From a virus (Duplodnaviria; Heunggongvirae; Uroviricota; Caudoviricetes): a stretch of 3,976 nucleotides of DNA. The notes under the pieces are model-generated. The model searched no databases and was not told where the DNA came from. It saw nothing but the letters and a program-made list of their open reading frames with translations. The stretch lies in the IMG/VR virus record IMGVR_UViG_2579778535_000019; one strand, written 5' to 3'. Within the stretch, counting starts at the first letter, position 1. Every line of letters starts with the position of its first letter. Both the position numbers and the translations under genes were made by a program. This document shows, piece by piece, positions 1-3,976 of this stretch.

Positions 1-156
1 CGCGCTGCACTGATACGGCTGCAGACGACAACCTTCGTAATCGGCAATCAGTTTCAGCCCCTCCACGGAGGTGTGAAGCTGCTGAAAACCCGGCAGCGTG
101 GCAGCAATAGCCAGCACGGCCCCGACAAGGCAGCGTTTAACGATTGATGGATTCAT
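1..156 (-). CDS. Phage endolysin, SAR-type lysozyme (T4-lysozyme-like fold, P1 Lyz-like); N-terminal 52 codons only, 3' end lies beyond the window start
   Basis: ATG at 156-154 on the minus strand, preceded by GGGAGGA (159-165). Translation by hand: MNPSIVKRCLVGAVLAIAATLPGFQQLHTSVEGLKLIADYEGCRLQPYQCSA. Ala/Gly-rich weakly hydrophobic N-terminal segment followed by the E-G-C ... P-Y-x-C motif characteristic of SAR lysozymes with a caging cysteine. Not in the ORF track because it is truncated by the window edge. Confidence 0.75.
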   Translation of the reverse strand, partial: MNPSIVKRCLVGAVLAIAATLPGFQQLHTSVEGLKLIADYEGCRLQPYQCSA

Positions 157-352
157 AGTCCTCCCGCGAGATCTGCCCGTCGCGCAGAAGCTGGTAGGCT
201 TTGTGTTTGTAGTACCAGTTGATAGCCAGCATCAGCACACCAATCATCAGGCCGCCCAGCGTTGAGGCATCCTTGATGGACAAATCGCCCAGCCAGGCCA
301 GCACGACGGCGATGCAATACGTGATAAAGGCGCTGATTCGCTCAAGCGTCAT
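137..352 (-). CDS. Small class II holin (possible pinholin), 71 aa, two predicted transmembrane helices and a charged C-terminal tail
   Basis: ORF track 137..352; ATG at 352-350. Two hydrophobic stretches (ISAFITYCIAVVLAWLG and LGGLMIGVLMLAINWYY) followed by KHKAYQLLRDGQISREDYESINR. Lies between tail gene X and the endolysin, where P2-like phages carry the holin; its 3' end overlaps the endolysin start by about 20 nt. Confidence 0.65.
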   Translation of the reverse strand: MTLERISAFITYCIAVVLAWLGDLSIKDASTLGGLMIGVLMLAINWYYKHKAYQLLRDGQISREDYESINR

Positions 353-355
353 AAT

Positions 356-559
356 TCAGTCCCATAGCTGGACGGTCTGCACGGTGGTGGTGGTCGGAAT
401 GTCCGGCAGCTCCACCTGCAGCCCGTGAGGTAAAAAGGGGCCATATTCGGCAAGCCCCGGATTTGCCTTCAGTACCTGCTCCGTGACACCCTGCGTGCGC
501 CCGTAATGACGCCAGCAAAGCGCGTCCACCGTGTCATACTGATGCGCACGCACTTTCAT
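356..559 (-). CDS. X: Phage tail protein X (P2 gpX family, LysM-like), 67 aa
   Basis: ORF track 356..559; ATG at 559-557 with a GGAG upstream. Sequence MKVRAHQYDTVDALCWRHYGRTQGVTEQVLKANPGLAEYGPFLPHGLQVELPDIP... matches the remembered gpX pattern (…D.LC.RYYGRT.GV.E.VL.ANPGLAE.G..LPHG..VELPD…), and 67 aa is the expected length. Its start overlaps the L stop (TGATG). Confidence 0.85.
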   Translation of the reverse strand: MKVRAHQYDTVDALCWRHYGRTQGVTEQVLKANPGLAEYGPFLPHGLQVELPDIPTTTTVQTVQLWD

Positions 560-1023
560 CAGATAAGCTCCACTGTGCAGTGCGGCGCATCCTGCACCCG
601 GCGGATGGCCCAGCGGGCGTCACGCCACAAATCACCGCTGGCTTCTGCCAGTTCTTCGCCTCGCTTCACACCGGATGCCGTGGCGTCATAGTCCTGGTAT
701 CGTTCGTTGAGCATGGCGCGTGCCCAGCAGTAAACCGCATTGAAATAGTGCTGAATGCGCTCACTTTTGCCGTCCAGCTGCTCCGACGGAACCTCTGCCA
801 GCGAGGCATATCCCAGCACCTGCTGGCGTCTGCGAAACTCATACAGCTCTGCGTTGACCTCCGAAATTGCCGACAGCGCAACCTGCTTTAAACGCGGCTG
901 CGTCACCGTGCCGTCAGTGCGCATGACACTGCGAAACTCCGACAGGTCCACATCAGGCCAGAACGGCGTGTTTCTGATGATTTCCGCCTGTTCCGGTGCC
1001 TGTTCTGGCGCAACAAACTTCAT
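559..1023 (-). CDS. L: Phage head completion/stabilization protein (P2 gpL family), 154 aa
   Basis: ORF track frame 559..1086, but the likely start is the internal ATG at 1023-1021, which has a strong SD (AGGAGA, 7 nt spacer) and begins MKFVAPEQ. It sits immediately upstream of and translationally coupled to X, as gpL does in P2-like phages. The 21-codon upstream extension starts at a GTG with no SD. Confidence 0.65.
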   Translation of the reverse strand: MKFVAPEQAPEQAEIIRNTPFWPDVDLSEFRSVMRTDGTVTQPRLKQVALSAISEVNAELYEFRRRQQVLGYASLAEVPSEQLDGKSERIQHYFNAVYCWARAMLNERYQDYDATASGVKRGEELAEASGDLWRDARWAIRRVQDAPHCTVELI

Positions 1024-1240: not shown

Positions 1241-1579
1241 TCAGGATACCGCACCTGCAGCAACACGCCCGATCTCTGCGGTTGCACTCATGACGTAATG
1301 TGACAGTTTCTCTTTTGCCACCTCATTAATCGGTACACATGGCAGACAATGAATCTGTGCCAGAAAACCATCTACCAGCGTTGAATCTTCAGTCAGATCG
1401 GTAAGCAGCCAGATTTCTGGTGCGGTTAATAGATGAGGCTGAGCTGGGTTCAGCTTGTTCCGCAGAATCTGCACATTCATGCCTGCACGTTCTGCCAGTT
1501 GCACCAGATTGTGGCGCAGTGCAAATGCACGACAGGCTTCATCAAAATGTGGATGTTTGGAAACTTGGTAATCAAACAT
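1241..1579 (-). CDS. cII: Phage regulatory protein CII-like (186 CII / CP76 family), apparently C-terminally truncated (112 aa)
   Basis: ORF track 1241..1585 begins at TTG; the likely start is the ATG at 1579-1577, giving [49 protein letters not shown]... with an HTH-like segment. It is the second gene of the operon after the Cox/Apl-like gene, as in phage 186. Phage 186 CII is about 169 aa (established knowledge), so this copy appears shortened. Confidence 0.65.
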
Positions 1580-1611
1580 GGTCAATGCCTCTGATGTATT
1601 TCAGAATCGAA

Positions 1612-1833
1612 CTAATTAAGGTTTAGATTGCATTCTGAAAGCGCATCAACGGTCATGGCTGCTATGTTGATCATCACTTTTTCGCGTTTTTTATCTTTGC
1701 GCAAACGGTGACGGATAAGGCGTCCGTCAGCCAACATGTCATTGATGGTATCGATGGACAGCCCTGTCAGCTCGCTATAGCGCTCAATAGTCACATGAGG
1801 CGTGGTAAGAGTGATTGAAATGTTAGGTCTCAT
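1612..1833 (-). CDS. Cox/Apl-like small DNA-binding protein (excisionase / repressor of the lysogenic promoter), 73 aa
   Basis: ORF track 1612..1833. First gene of the leftward operon, divergent from the repressor gene. Its size and the central segment [28 protein letters not shown] resemble the Cox/Apl winged-helix family, and the position matches cox (P2) / apl (186). Confidence 0.6.
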
Positions 1834-1958
1834 GATGCAACATTCCTCGTTTAATGATGATTAATCAGGACGAATACGGATCGTTTGTATTTTGTGAACA
1901 CCATAAACATACGATCGCACAATGAAATCGTCAAGATAAAAGTTCACTTGGAGTGACC
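1834..1958. promoter_or_regulatory. Lysis-lysogeny switch region between the divergent cox/apl-like and cI-like genes
   Basis: 125 bp AT-rich intergenic region. Contains a direct repeat ATACGGATCG (1874-1883) / ATACGATCG (1908-1916), two GATC sites, and an imperfect inverted repeat around 1888-1912 (GTATTTTGTG ... CATAAACATAC). Confidence 0.5.
1906..1934 (-). promoter_or_regulatory. Candidate sigma70 early lytic promoter (pR/Pe-like) reading leftward toward cox/apl
   Basis: On the minus strand: -35 TTGACG (1934-1929), 17-nt spacer, -10 TATGTT (1911-1906). Predicted start near 1899, giving a leader of about 65 nt before the cox/apl ATG at 1833. The second copy of the ATACGATCG repeat overlaps the -10. 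Confidence 0.4.
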
Positions 1959-2528
1959 ATGAATTTGGAGAAAGGCGGACGAGGCGCTATAGAGCGCATG
2001 GTAGAAGCTTATGGATTCAAAACTCGACAGGCGTTGTGCGATCATTTAGGAATCTCTAAAAGTACACTCGCCACACGCTACATGCGTGACTCATTCCCAG
2101 CAGAATGGGTAATCCAGTGCGCCCTTGAAACGGGCACCTCGCTTAATTGGCTCACAACCGGACATGGTTCAAAGCAAACTTCAGGTAATACAAATACTAT
2201 GGAAGTTGCTAAATATGTATTATCTGATGGTGCCTTGCGTGAAGACGGTTTTTATATTTTTGATAAGGGATTTTTACCCTCTACGTTTAAAAAACCTTTT
2301 GTCATCACAGATAACAATTCTGAATTTATTTGTGATAAAGAATTTGATGATATACGTGATGGTAAATGGGTAATAAGTATTGATGGCGAAGTAACGATCC
2401 GTGACATTACTCGTTTACCCGGTGGAAGAATCTTCGTCGAGGGTGGAAACAGAGCCTTCGAATGTAAGATAGAAGACATTGAAATAATTGGTAAAATTAT
2501 AAGTTTAACAGTCAAGTATGTTAAATAG
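1959..2528 (+). CDS. cI: Phage CI-type repressor (186 CI-like: N-terminal HTH domain plus C-terminal oligomerization domain), 189 aa
   Basis: ORF track 1953..2528 begins at GTG; the likely start is the ATG at 1959 with GGAG 5 nt upstream. The N-terminal segment ERMVEAYGFKTRQALCDHLGISKSTLATRYMRDSFPAEWVIQCALETGTSLNWLTTG fits the 186 CI-type HTH domain. Length is close to 186 CI (192 aa), and the gene is divergent from cox/apl and upstream of int. Confidence 0.8.
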   Translation: MNLEKGGRGAIERMVEAYGFKTRQALCDHLGISKSTLATRYMRDSFPAEWVIQCALETGTSLNWLTTGHGSKQTSGNTNTMEVAKYVLSDGALREDGFYIFDKGFLPSTFKKPFVITDNNSEFICDKEFDDIRDGKWVISIDGEVTIRDITRLPGGRIFVEGGNRAFECKIEDIEIIGKIISLTVKYVK

Positions 2529-2543
2529 TACCGGGAGGAAACT

Positions 2544-2735
2544 ATGCTTGGTAAGGTATTTTTTGTGGTTTTGTCATGTTCTTTGTTATTAAACCCACTA
2601 ACTACCTATGCTAGAAATTATCCCTGCTCAGGGAAAAAGGGAGGTGTTTCTCACTGTACCTCAGATGGCAAATTCGTTTGCAATGATGGAACTATTAGTA
2701 AATCCAAAAAAATCTGTACTAAAAACTCACGATAA
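2544..2735 (+). CDS. Small secreted cysteine-rich protein of unknown function (63 aa precursor; predicted signal peptide, ~40 aa Lys-rich mature part with 4 Cys)
   Basis: ORF track 2544..2735. Strong SD GGGAGG 5 nt before the ATG, 15 nt after the cI stop. N-terminus [23 protein letters not shown] has n/h/c signal-peptide architecture with a T-Y-A cleavage motif; mature part [40 protein letters not shown]. Lies in an AT-rich segment. Confidence 0.5.
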
Positions 2736-2923
2736 CTTTTGCTTTTATATCTGCGTCTAAAATAAAAATGAGCCGCAGGTTAACCGCAAAAGTTACATGC
2801 TCACATAGCAAAAAGAATAGCCAACTTCATTATGGCTTCAGTGAGATGTATGGTCGTAGGATTTCATACATTGACACTGGTTATACATACAGTAAAAATG
2901 CTCTCTACTGGAGGGCATTTTTT

Positions 2924-3976
2924 ATGGCAGTACGAAAACTCACCACAGGGAAATGGCTTTGCGAATGTTACCCCGCCGGACGAAGTGGGCGTCGTGTGCG
3001 TAAACAATTCGCCACCAAAGGCGAAGCTCTGGCTTTTGAGCGTCACACTATGGAAGAAACCGAATCAAAGCCATGGCTGGGCGAATCAGTGGATCGTCGA
3101 ACCCTGAAAGACGTGGTTGAGCTATGGTTCAAACTACATGGTAAATCTCTGACTGCTGGGCAGCATGTCTATGACAAATTGCTGCTGATGGTTGACGCTC
3201 TGGGCAATCCTCTTGCAACCGATCTCACCTCTAAAATGTTTGCCCACTATCGAGATAAACGCCTGACAGGCGAGATCTACTTCAGCGAGAAATGGAAGAA
3301 AGGAGCAAGCCCGGTCACCATTAACCTGGAGCAAAGCTATCTAAGTAGTGTTTTTAGCGAACTATCCCGTCTGGGCGAATGGGCGTATCCGAACCCACTG
3401 GAGAACATGCGAAAATTCACCATCGCAGAAAAAGAGATGGCATGGCTTACCCATGAGCAGATTGTTGAATTACTGGCTGATTGCAAACGTCAGGACCCAA
3501 TTCTAGCACTGGTAGTTAAGATATGCTTAAGCACAGGCGCACGCTGGCGAGAAGCCGTAAATCTTACTCGTTCACAGGTGACCAAATACCGAATTACCTT
3601 TGTAAGAACGAAGGGGAAGAAAAACAGAAGTATCCCTATCAGTAAAGAGCTTTACGAAGAGATCATGGCGCTTGATGGGTTCAATTTCTTCACAGACTGC
3701 TATTTTCAATTTTTATCCGTGATGGAAAAAACGTCTATCGTGCTCCCTCGCGGTCAACTCACACACGTTCTGCGCCATACGTTTGCGGCGCACTTCATGA
3801 TGTCGGGTGGAAACATTCTGGCCTTACAAAAAATTCTCGGACACCACGATATAAAAATGACTATGCGTTACGCACATCTGGCACCGGATCATCTGGAAAC
3901 GGCGCTCCGTTTCAATCCTCTGGCAACGCTGCCAAGTGGCGACAAAGTGGCGGCAGCGGTTGGCATTACCCCGTAA
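2924..3976 (+). CDS. int: Tyrosine site-specific recombinase / phage integrase (P2-type), 350 aa
   Basis: ORF track 2768..3976, but homology-like sequence begins at MAVRKLTTGKWLCECYPAGRSGRRVRKQFATKGEALAFE (ATG at 2924, GGAGGG 7 nt upstream). C-terminal catalytic signature present: ...STGARWREA..., HVLRHTFAAHFMMSGGNILALQKILGHHDIKMTMRYAH with the R, H-x-x-R, H and Y residues. Stop TAA at 3974-3976 is exactly at the window end. Confidence 0.9.
   Translation: MAVRKLTTGKWLCECYPAGRSGRRVRKQFATKGEALAFERHTMEETESKPWLGESVDRRTLKDVVELWFKLHGKSLTAGQHVYDKLLLMVDALGNPLATDLTSKMFAHYRDKRLTGEIYFSEKWKKGASPVTINLEQSYLSSVFSELSRLGEWAYPNPLENMRKFTIAEKEMAWLTHEQIVELLADCKRQDPILALVVKICLSTGARWREAVNLTRSQVTKYRITFVRTKGKKNRSIPISKELYEEIMALDGFNFFTDCYFQFLSVMEKTSIVLPRGQLTHVLRHTFAAHFMMSGGNILALQKILGHHDIKMTMRYAHLAPDHLETALRFNPLATLPSGDKVAAAVGITP

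Follow-up and report, generated by a model that had tools for sequence, protein, structure and literature searches.

What is encoded by the small open reading frame (ORF) that lies between the repressor gene cI and the integrase gene int of a 186-like Escherichia coli prophage, and what could its product do in the lysogen? The question is raised by virus record IMGVR_UViG_2579778535_000019, whose 3,976 nucleotides are referred to here as the window. This stretch comprises the lysogeny end of an E. coli prophage of the 186-like type (Peduoviridae), and the ORF occupies positions 2544-2735. An earlier note, made from the letters of the sequence, had described a small secreted Cys-rich protein that it could not assign to a family, and had proposed a moron with a candidate role as an exclusion or toxin-like factor. 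We find that the ORF is almost certainly a functional gene of the YdcA family. It is already annotated as such and is an ordinary prophage moron that has previously gone undiscussed, in a family without established function. Our tentative suggestion, possible rather than probable, is that the product is made in the lysogen, resides in the periplasm and acts on incoming DNA or on its route of entry.

The ORF is a member of the YdcA family

The assignment that was missing from the earlier note was provided by profile searches. The product matched NCBIfam model NF007463 (PRK10040) with 115.8 bits against a curated cutoff of 93 (E = 5.3e-34), and the match covered the profile from position 1 to position 58 of 58. 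Neither of the sister models, NF007462 (68.5 versus 118 bits) and NF007464, reached its cutoff. Pfam family PF27300.1 ("YdcA") is precomputed for the cluster that holds the exact window protein; a local Pfam-A scan of the protein gave no YdcA match, in a copy of the database that may or may not hold the PF27300 model. The identical RefSeq protein, WP_000900883.1, is named "YdcA family protein", and many genomes still carry the gene as "hypothetical protein". Naming is inconsistent across databases: UniRef calls the same cluster "Conjugal transfer protein", a label for which no supporting evidence was found. Two other uses of the gene name were set aside. The ydcA of plasmid pS88 is annotated as a DNA methylase, and nothing ties either this gene or the ydcA of papers on the gonococcal genetic island to the YdcA family.

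E. coli has a chromosomal paralog, ydcA (K-12 YdcA/b1419), in the order cybB-ydcA-hokB. Its 57-residue product, annotated as a "periplasmic protein", shares 57% identity with the prophage protein overall and approximately 79% in the core. Of 5426 complete E. coli genomes, 648 (~12%) carried the prophage gene and 1135 a related integrase. Compared with the allele of E. coli C, it has 11 synonymous differences and a single, conservative non-synonymous one. By this measure of allelic variation prophage ydcA is under strong purifying selection, and disrupted copies are rare (P0008 and P0222).

Family-wide, 464 clusters at 50% identity came out of an exhaustive profile search, and a second search gave 1527 at the 90% level. 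The motif of the domain is xPCSGxKGG(V/I)xxC...FxCxDG(T/S)xSxSKxxC, in which the four Cys are invariant. From Enterobacterales to Moraxella, Herbaspirillum and Legionella, these residues and the motifs around them (PCSGxKGG(V/I)xxC, FxCxDG and SxSK) are invariant or nearly so.

A short ORF in AT-rich DNA could also be a chance reading frame in an untranslated integrase leader, and a conserved leader does take up the last ~60-90 nt before int. Because of the curated family match, the 11:1 ratio of synonymous to non-synonymous differences and the 1527 homologous clusters, this explanation is effectively refuted and its probability is negligible. In addition, the ORF has a strong Shine-Dalgarno sequence, and the conserved leader begins only at ~2836, downstream of the ORF. 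The gene that the earlier note described is real.

A predicted exported peptide with four Cys residues

The 63-residue product starts with MLGK, a 12-residue hydrophobic core and TYA|R, after which comes a predicted mature peptide of 40 residues with a pI of 9.7, 9 Lys/Arg versus 2 Asp/Glu, and Cys at positions 28, 38, 46 and 58 (C28, C38, C46 and C58). A fifth Cys, C12, is located inside the signal peptide. Export via this signal peptide is predicted, in agreement with the signal peptide and basic four-Cys peptide of ~40 residues described in the earlier note. The call is based on a family-wide sequence pattern: an uncharged hydrophobic run precedes the YdcA domain in 197 of 204 family members, and 146 of the 204 have Ala at -5 relative to the first Cys, which indicates an AxA-type cleavage site.

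The sequence VLSC in the signal peptide was also considered as a lipobox, and the lipoprotein reading was rejected. Its Cys, at position 12, is too near the N-terminus (lipobox Cys are at ~15-35). The motif is not conserved either: the residue before this Cys is F, I or V in other alleles, and many members have no Cys there.

ydcA co-diverged with the immunity module

The earlier note had regarded the ORF as AT-rich and, on this ground, as foreign. The GC content of the ORF itself (35.4%) agrees with the first statement. The flanks, put at roughly 50-60% in the note, are at 48-50%, namely 50.5% in the N-terminal part of cI (1959-2160) and 48.5% in int, and values of 54-60% are reached in the late genes alone. 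The AT-rich block (2161-2923, 35.3% GC) spans the C-terminal domain of cI (33.7%), the ORF and the spacer that follows it. The two halves of cI differ not only in GC content: among relatives, the N-terminal DNA-binding part is 93-95% conserved, whereas the C-terminal (oligomerisation) domain is only 56-57% identical. On this double contrast, the C-terminal part of cI, ydcA and the spacer form one AT-rich, fast-evolving module. AT-richness is therefore a weak argument for a separate foreign origin of the ORF, because the adjoining cI domain is equally AT-rich and has co-diverged with it. The pattern of conservation in relatives indicates that ydcA diverged along with the immunity module and is not a recent insertion.

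Within this module the mature peptide is nearly constant. In two prophages whose cI C-terminal domains are 56-57% identical to that of the window, mature YdcA is 89-95% identical and the signal peptides are almost unrelated. Compared with Haemophilus phage HP2, the identity is 38% for cI, 51% for Int and 74% for the mature YdcA peptide. Such constancy points to an invariant ligand rather than to a fast-evolving phage protein.

The slot between cI and int carries variable cargo

As the earlier note had suspected, a comparison of synteny showed that the cI-int interval is a slot for variable cargo. In phage 186 there is no gene in it: cI abuts int in the annotated lysogenic operon pL-cI-int-orf69. 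In ~590 genomes the slot holds ydcA alone. In other E. coli and Klebsiella strains it holds a divergent ydcA allele and, 12-13 nt downstream, a gene for a KAP NTPase that matches PADLOC model PDC-S20 and PifA. These alleles are 61-93% identical overall and 89-95% identical in the mature part. Where the slot holds the KAP NTPase, a YdcA gene is often present with it. Since the other occupants are PD-Lambda-1 and a PDC-M11 cassette (Table 1), the slot is a defence hotspot in the 186-like lineage of E. coli and Klebsiella. A defence hotspot between cI and int has been reported for K139-like Vibrio phages by Rousset et al. (PMC9122126), and an integrase-primase hotspot of P2-like phages accounted for 8% of P2 defence systems in a 2026 survey (PMC13586616), in which a term search found no mention of YdcA.

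The arrangement with the NTPase raises the possibility that YdcA is a periplasmic partner or sensor of the adjacent KAP (PifA-like) protein, and that slots with ydcA only are leftovers after loss of the NTPase gene. The close spacing of the two genes, found in the same slot in both E. coli and Klebsiella, and the matches of the NTPase to PDC-S20 and PifA are consistent with such a unit. We nevertheless consider it quite unlikely. The ~590 stand-alone copies are under purifying selection; HP2, Moraxella phages and plasmids have YdcA genes without a KAP NTPase; and PADLOC models PDC-S20 as a single gene. Nor does the window spacer contain a remnant of the NTPase: positions 2736-2835 showed no similarity to the KAP NTPase gene or to other slot cargo.

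YdcA genes recur on phages and plasmids

A tblastn search detected YdcA homologs in 27 phage records. Twenty of these were Moraxella Mcat phages, in which the gene lies between head and tail genes, and the others were Acinetobacter phages, Pseudomonas phage Y12 and the Haemophilus phages HP2 and S2. No copy was found in any Escherichia phage record, and therefore all evidence on the E. coli version comes from prophages, many of which are remnants. In HP2, an unannotated 60-residue homolog occupies the cI-int slot, with its ATG overlapping the stop codon of cI (ATGA), in an annotated pL operon that reads pL-cI-[YdcA homolog]-orf1(S)-int. An unannotated homolog is present in the same slot of S2, and the corresponding slot of HP1 contains four other ORFs.

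The family is also found on many Acinetobacter and Rhizobium plasmids. In pApiMCR53a (NZ_CP139254.1), a 3.9-kb MOBQ plasmid of Acinetobacter, the YdcA gene (728-904; locus L013) is one of five genes; it adjoins the mobilisation genes, between a TraD-like and a hypothetical gene.

Relationship to Dis2 and fusion to secreted nucleases

The AlphaFold (AF2) model of the protein is a small beta-ribbon (pLDDT 76 for the full length and 80.7 for the mature peptide). [quoted passage not shown] E values were 3e-5 for the full-length protein (phmmer), 2.2e-4 for the mature peptide alone and 2.8e-6 for the family profile, and both lobes of Dis2 align to the YdcA domain. Dis2 was also the top Foldseek match (probability 0.85, 38% identity over 39 columns, TM 0.64). 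Homology between the YdcA domain and Dis2 is thus likely, and our literature search found no paper that links the two. Orthology is excluded, given the one lobe of the window protein and the lack of a nearby T4SS; the protein is a single domain with four Cys, and its gene is surrounded by prophage genes only. Dis2 itself, with five disulfides, is located near the outer membrane (PMC8486379), where it contacts DotK, DotC and DotD (PMC12716638, PMC8486379).

This relationship allows for a different role, in which the knot serves as an adaptor that binds outer-membrane lipoproteins or OmpA-like proteins in the periplasm and modifies a secretin, a pilus, a T4SS or Tol-Pal. Any exclusion would then be indirect, via an altered receptor or entry route and not via DNA binding. 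Homology to both lobes, the Foldseek result, the contacts of Dis2 with DotK, DotC and DotD, and the likeness of tandem two- and three-domain members of the family to the two-lobed Dis2 all argue for such an adaptor. However, no T4SS or secretin genes are found near prophage ydcA, Dis2 is far less basic and has partners restricted to Legionellales, and the nuclease fusions described below are left unexplained unless the domain is only an anchor. On balance we regard an adaptor function as unlikely.

Domain architecture was assessed in the best 120-150 matches of each search. Among the matches listed, most YdcA-family members are stand-alone proteins of 50-125 residues, some have two or three tandem domains, and many contain a second small Cys module that matches PBCV_basic_adap. 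In addition, secreted nucleases from three unrelated families have a YdcA domain as their N-terminal module, with matches above the Pfam cutoff to SNase (E = 4.8e-24), Endonuclease_NS (at least 4 proteins, with E as low as 8e-33) and PLD-type Nuc (E = 5e-19). A match to HNH was weak and below cutoff. The proteins behind the fusion and Cys-module observations are P0094, P0149, P0173, P0177, P0211, P0166, P0204 and P0233. We consider the nuclease fusions the strongest functional hint; they suggest nucleic-acid binding, or else a common role in anchoring secreted nucleases to the envelope.

Several other relationships were examined. A link to DUF3761 by circular permutation, based on the motif CxDGxxSxSxxxxGxCSxHGGV, was dropped, as 83 members gave no Pfam match to it at E <= 1. 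The TerY_C metal-binding domain gave weak matches to 14 of the 83 members (best E = 6.4e-4), none of which reached the cutoff, and Foldseek matches to the TFIIB zinc ribbon had probabilities of at most 0.12. The TerY_C and TFIIB matches hint at a ribbon-like Cys scaffold at most and were put to no use. Potato type II (Pin-II) proteinase inhibitors were rejected as relatives: their matches were non-significant (E = 0.07-1.8), and the four Cys of YdcA do not correspond to their eight-Cys pattern.

The toxin-like character that the earlier note had considered fared no better. In favour of a secreted toxin, bacteriocin or protease inhibitor, the peptide is small, basic, Cys-rich and putatively exported, and plant Pin-II proteins did give weak, non-significant matches (E = 0.07-0.8). 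We found no immunity gene, no dedicated exporter and no match to a toxin family above threshold; the Pin-II matches lie below significance and lack the eight-Cys pattern; and ordinary E. coli has a housekeeping chromosomal paralog, with the prophage copy present in 12% of genomes. A toxin or inhibitor is accordingly very unlikely.

Proposed function of prophage YdcA

The reading of prophage YdcA as a factor that interferes with DNA follows from the fusions, the mobile-element contexts and the pattern of constraint. Counted for a link to DNA are the fused nuclease domains, the recurrence on phages and prophages, the MOBQ plasmid and the T4SS relative. The basic pI, the predicted export and the slot, with its defence cargo and the position of glo in K139, also speak for this reading. 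In the lysogen, ydcA would be transcribed from pL together with cI, to judge by the annotated operons of 186, HP2 and K139. The precursor would be exported by Sec and its signal peptide cut after TYA23. The four Cys would form two disulfides, giving a small basic beta-ribbon knot in the periplasm, probably near the outer membrane, by analogy with Dis2 and with the features of the family. This knot may bind an invariant ligand, most likely nucleic acid or a conserved outer-membrane-proximal part of a DNA-translocating route, and may interfere with incoming foreign DNA, i.e., that of a superinfecting phage and possibly conjugative or transforming DNA. YdcA would in this way be a functional analogue of periplasmic exclusion proteins such as Glo of phage K139.

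A broader proposal is that the YdcA domain in general is a previously unrecognised periplasmic knot that binds nucleic acids or DNA conduits, and that the prophage copy represents a new class of lysogen-expressed barrier. This is speculative and, in our opinion, improbable as a whole. The knot would be common to secreted nucleases, Dis2, small mobilisable plasmids and many prophages. If it were true, prophage YdcA would intercept incoming phage, conjugative or transforming DNA in the periplasm, and the first functional handle on both E. coli YdcA and Dis2 would be available.

Several observations weigh against a role in DNA interference. No experiment ties any YdcA protein to phage or DNA exclusion. 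Extreme conservation is unusual for defence proteins engaged in an arms race, and periplasmic exposure of the DNA that contractile-tailed phages eject is not known. No model of PADLOC-DB 2.0 matches the YdcA protein, and many members of the family are located in plain housekeeping neighbourhoods on chromosomes. The nuclease fusions are a minority (~5% of the listed representatives) and could equally mean envelope anchoring. Dis2 contacts lipoproteins, not the translocation channel, and is dispensable (PMC12716638), and for the E. coli paralog the one link made so far is to tolerance of acid or organic acids (PMC7642389).

The last point is the basis for a fitness factor, in which the prophage simply adds a constitutive copy of a host envelope-stress protein and contributes to acid, organic-acid or envelope tolerance, with no role in exclusion. 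The similarity to the chromosomal paralog, particularly in the core, and the housekeeping contexts elsewhere are in line with this explanation. Deletion of ydcA makes E. coli W sensitive to 3-hydroxypropionate (3-HP), and ydcA was reported to be acid-induced under YdcI (PMC7642389). The strong conservation of the mature peptide would also fit a ligand of host physiology. On the other hand, a fitness factor leaves unexplained the nuclease fusions, the recurrence on phages, on small mobilisable plasmids and in a T4SS, and the slot shared with defence systems; moreover, the 3-HP phenotype is overridden by deletion of yieP, and no mechanism was given (PMC7642389). We therefore treat the fitness factor as a serious but rather unlikely alternative, and retain interference with incoming DNA or its entry route as our tentative proposal.

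Whatever its function, YdcA is a widespread mini-protein without an assigned role, and in about one of eight E. coli genomes a prophage copy accompanies the chromosomal paralog. Distantly related P2-like phages (186-like phages of E. coli and Klebsiella, Haemophilus HP2 and S2) carry its gene in their lysogen-expressed defence slot, and the single relative with a solved structure belongs to a type IV secretion machine and is described as Legionella-specific in the papers searched. Homology to Dis2, nuclease fusions and repeated use of the slot make the function cheap to test, and the answer could cover YdcA, Dis2 and a common prophage moron together.

Transcription context and the integrase leader

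The ORF is tightly packed after cI, as the earlier note had stated. The stop codon of cI (TAG, 2526-2528) is separated from the ATG at 2544 by 15 nt that include a GGGAGG Shine-Dalgarno sequence, and a simple scan of the + strand detected no terminator-like site between cI and the ORF or after the ORF.

The ydcA-int interval is strongly structured at the RNA level: positions 2733-2930 (198 nt) fold with -62.3 kcal/mol, a z score of -5.84 versus shuffled sequences. Covariation was sought for a hairpin at 2733-2795, which starts at the stop codon, and was not supported, as the substitutions in E. coli C break pairs and none of them compensate. No Rfam match was found in the window.

The integrase leader, which starts at ~2836-2864, is kept in all slot variants. 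It contains a conserved promoter-like sequence, with TTGACA (2871-2876), a 17-nt spacer and AAAAAT (2894-2899), that overlaps the 5' arm of a hairpin. In this hairpin, an A-tract/hairpin/T-tract arrangement that ends at the ATG of int, positions 2894-2905 are paired with 2911-2922 and a T-run is located at 2918-2923; the Shine-Dalgarno sequence of int (GGAGGG, 2910-2915) lies within it (2894-2922). In the PD-Lambda-1 variant of the slot (ECONIH1), a different 5' arm is present and AGCCCTC pairs with GAGGGCT. Because the arm differs and still pairs, the hairpin has been kept by compensatory change.

The layout of the leader suggests termination, or occlusion of the ribosome-binding site, for transcripts that read through from pL, together with a separate promoter for int. 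Read-through transcripts would terminate at the hairpin or hide the ribosome-binding site of int in it. Transcripts from the proximal promoter would lack the 5' arm, and int would be translatable. The hairpin may in this way make ydcA the last gene of the constitutive lysogenic transcript.

Organisation of the window and the prophage remnant

The features of the window and of other slot versions are listed in Table 1. The excisionase-domain match of the apl/cox-like gene is weak (E = 0.037).

Table 1. Features of the window (upper rows) and occupants of the cI-int slot at other loci (last three rows, positions within the named locus)
Feature	Position	Strand	Basis or remark
Holin gene	137-352	-	Clear Pfam match
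Tail protein X gene	356-559	-	Clear Pfam match
Head-completion gene L	559-1023	-	Clear Pfam match
Truncated cII gene	1241-1585		Phage_CP76
apl/cox-like gene	1612-1833	-	First gene of lytic operon, divergent from cI; position as apl/cox in 186, HP2 and K139
CI repressor gene, 186/HP1 type	1959-2528	+	Pfam Phage_CI_repr (E = 2.8e-33) and Phage_CI_C (E = 5.4e-29); PGAP annotation agrees
Shine-Dalgarno GGGAGGA of the small ORF	2533-2539	+	Read from sequence; 5 nt to ATG
YdcA-family gene, 63 aa	2544-2735 (stop included)	+	NCBIfam NF007463, PF27300, RefSeq name
Predicted Sec signal peptide, residues 1-23, cleavage after TYA	2544-2612	+	Family pattern; Ala23 invariant in family alignment
Predicted mature 40-residue basic peptide with four Cys (YdcA domain)	2613-2732	+	Invariant Cys and motifs
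Spacer restricted to the YdcA-only slot version	2736-2835	+	No similarity to other slot variants; part of strongly structured RNA
Conserved integrase leader, right border of cargo slot	2836-2923	+	Common to KAP, PD-Lambda-1 and PDC-M11 slot variants
Tyrosine integrase gene	2924-3976	+	Pfam Int_N (E = 3.9e-32) and Phage_integrase (E = 7.2e-22); PGAP coordinates
ydcA + KAP NTPase	L008 2516-4043; L016-L019 5001-6529; L024-L026		Possible two-gene unit
PD-Lambda-1	L009 1242-2918; L002 2808-4484		558 aa; annotated "chromosome segregation ATPase" or DUF4041
Three-gene cassette	L007 1278-3482		PDC-M11A, PDC-M11B and a protein weakly matching PADLOC DUF3644 (E = 2.4e-5)

The element is a deletion remnant, because late genes are fused to a truncated cII at ~1237-1252, where cII breaks off after ~105 codons. 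Positions 1-1252 (the 3' end of the terminase M gene, L, X and holin) are ~98% identical to Klebsiella/Escherichia P2-like phages. Positions 1245-3976 are 99.7-100% identical to many E. coli chromosomes, in which the prophage is inserted between ybjL and rcdA. The exact 1237-1252 junction was present in no complete E. coli genome of the collection searched. Other strains have different junctions beside cII, with fragments of gpD, tail sheath or capsid genes; the prophage is therefore often a remnant that keeps its int-ydcA-cI-apl-cII end. Some strains, among them E. coli C and CFT073, show a split integrase match or have a further small hypothetical gene between the integrase and rcdA, which suggests further variation at the att-proximal end.

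Comparison with known systems

With the YdcA family as defined by NCBIfam (NF007462-4/PRK10040) and PF27300, the window protein shares a predicted signal peptide followed by the four-Cys domain, and it scores above the curated cutoff. It differs from chromosomal YdcA in that its gene is part of a prophage lysogenic operon and not of the cybB-hokB region, and in that it belongs to equivalog NF007463 and not NF007462. Dis2, the only solved relative, is exported, disulfide-pinned and outer-membrane-proximal (PMC8486379), as is predicted for the window protein. However, Dis2 has two lobes and five disulfides and is assembled in the Dot/Icm T4SS, whereas the window protein is one domain with four Cys.

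With rexAB and sieB of lambda, to which the earlier note had compared the gene, ydcA has in common that accessory genes are co-expressed with the repressor in the lysogen, if its predicted co-transcription holds. Rex and SieB are cytoplasmic or inner-membrane abortive-infection systems, whereas the product of the window gene is a small, putatively exported peptide. Small exported or envelope proteins of resident phages that block the entry of phage DNA after adsorption include Sim of P1, Sp and Imm of T4, Llp of T5 and Ltp of TP-J34. No homology between these proteins and YdcA is known, and none is known to belong to its family. What they act on (lysozyme, receptor, tape measure) is specific to a phage or a receptor, in contrast to the near-invariance of YdcA.

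Glo of phage K139 offers a parallel of position. The two proteins are not homologous by BLASTP (E = 0.16 over 30 residues), and Glo, with 137 residues and a helical character, is an analogy only. As an analogy, it shows an exported protein whose gene is placed between cI and int, in the PL-cI-orf2-glo-int operon of a P2-related phage (PMC4870250), and the K139 record annotates Glo as periplasmic and involved in phage exclusion.

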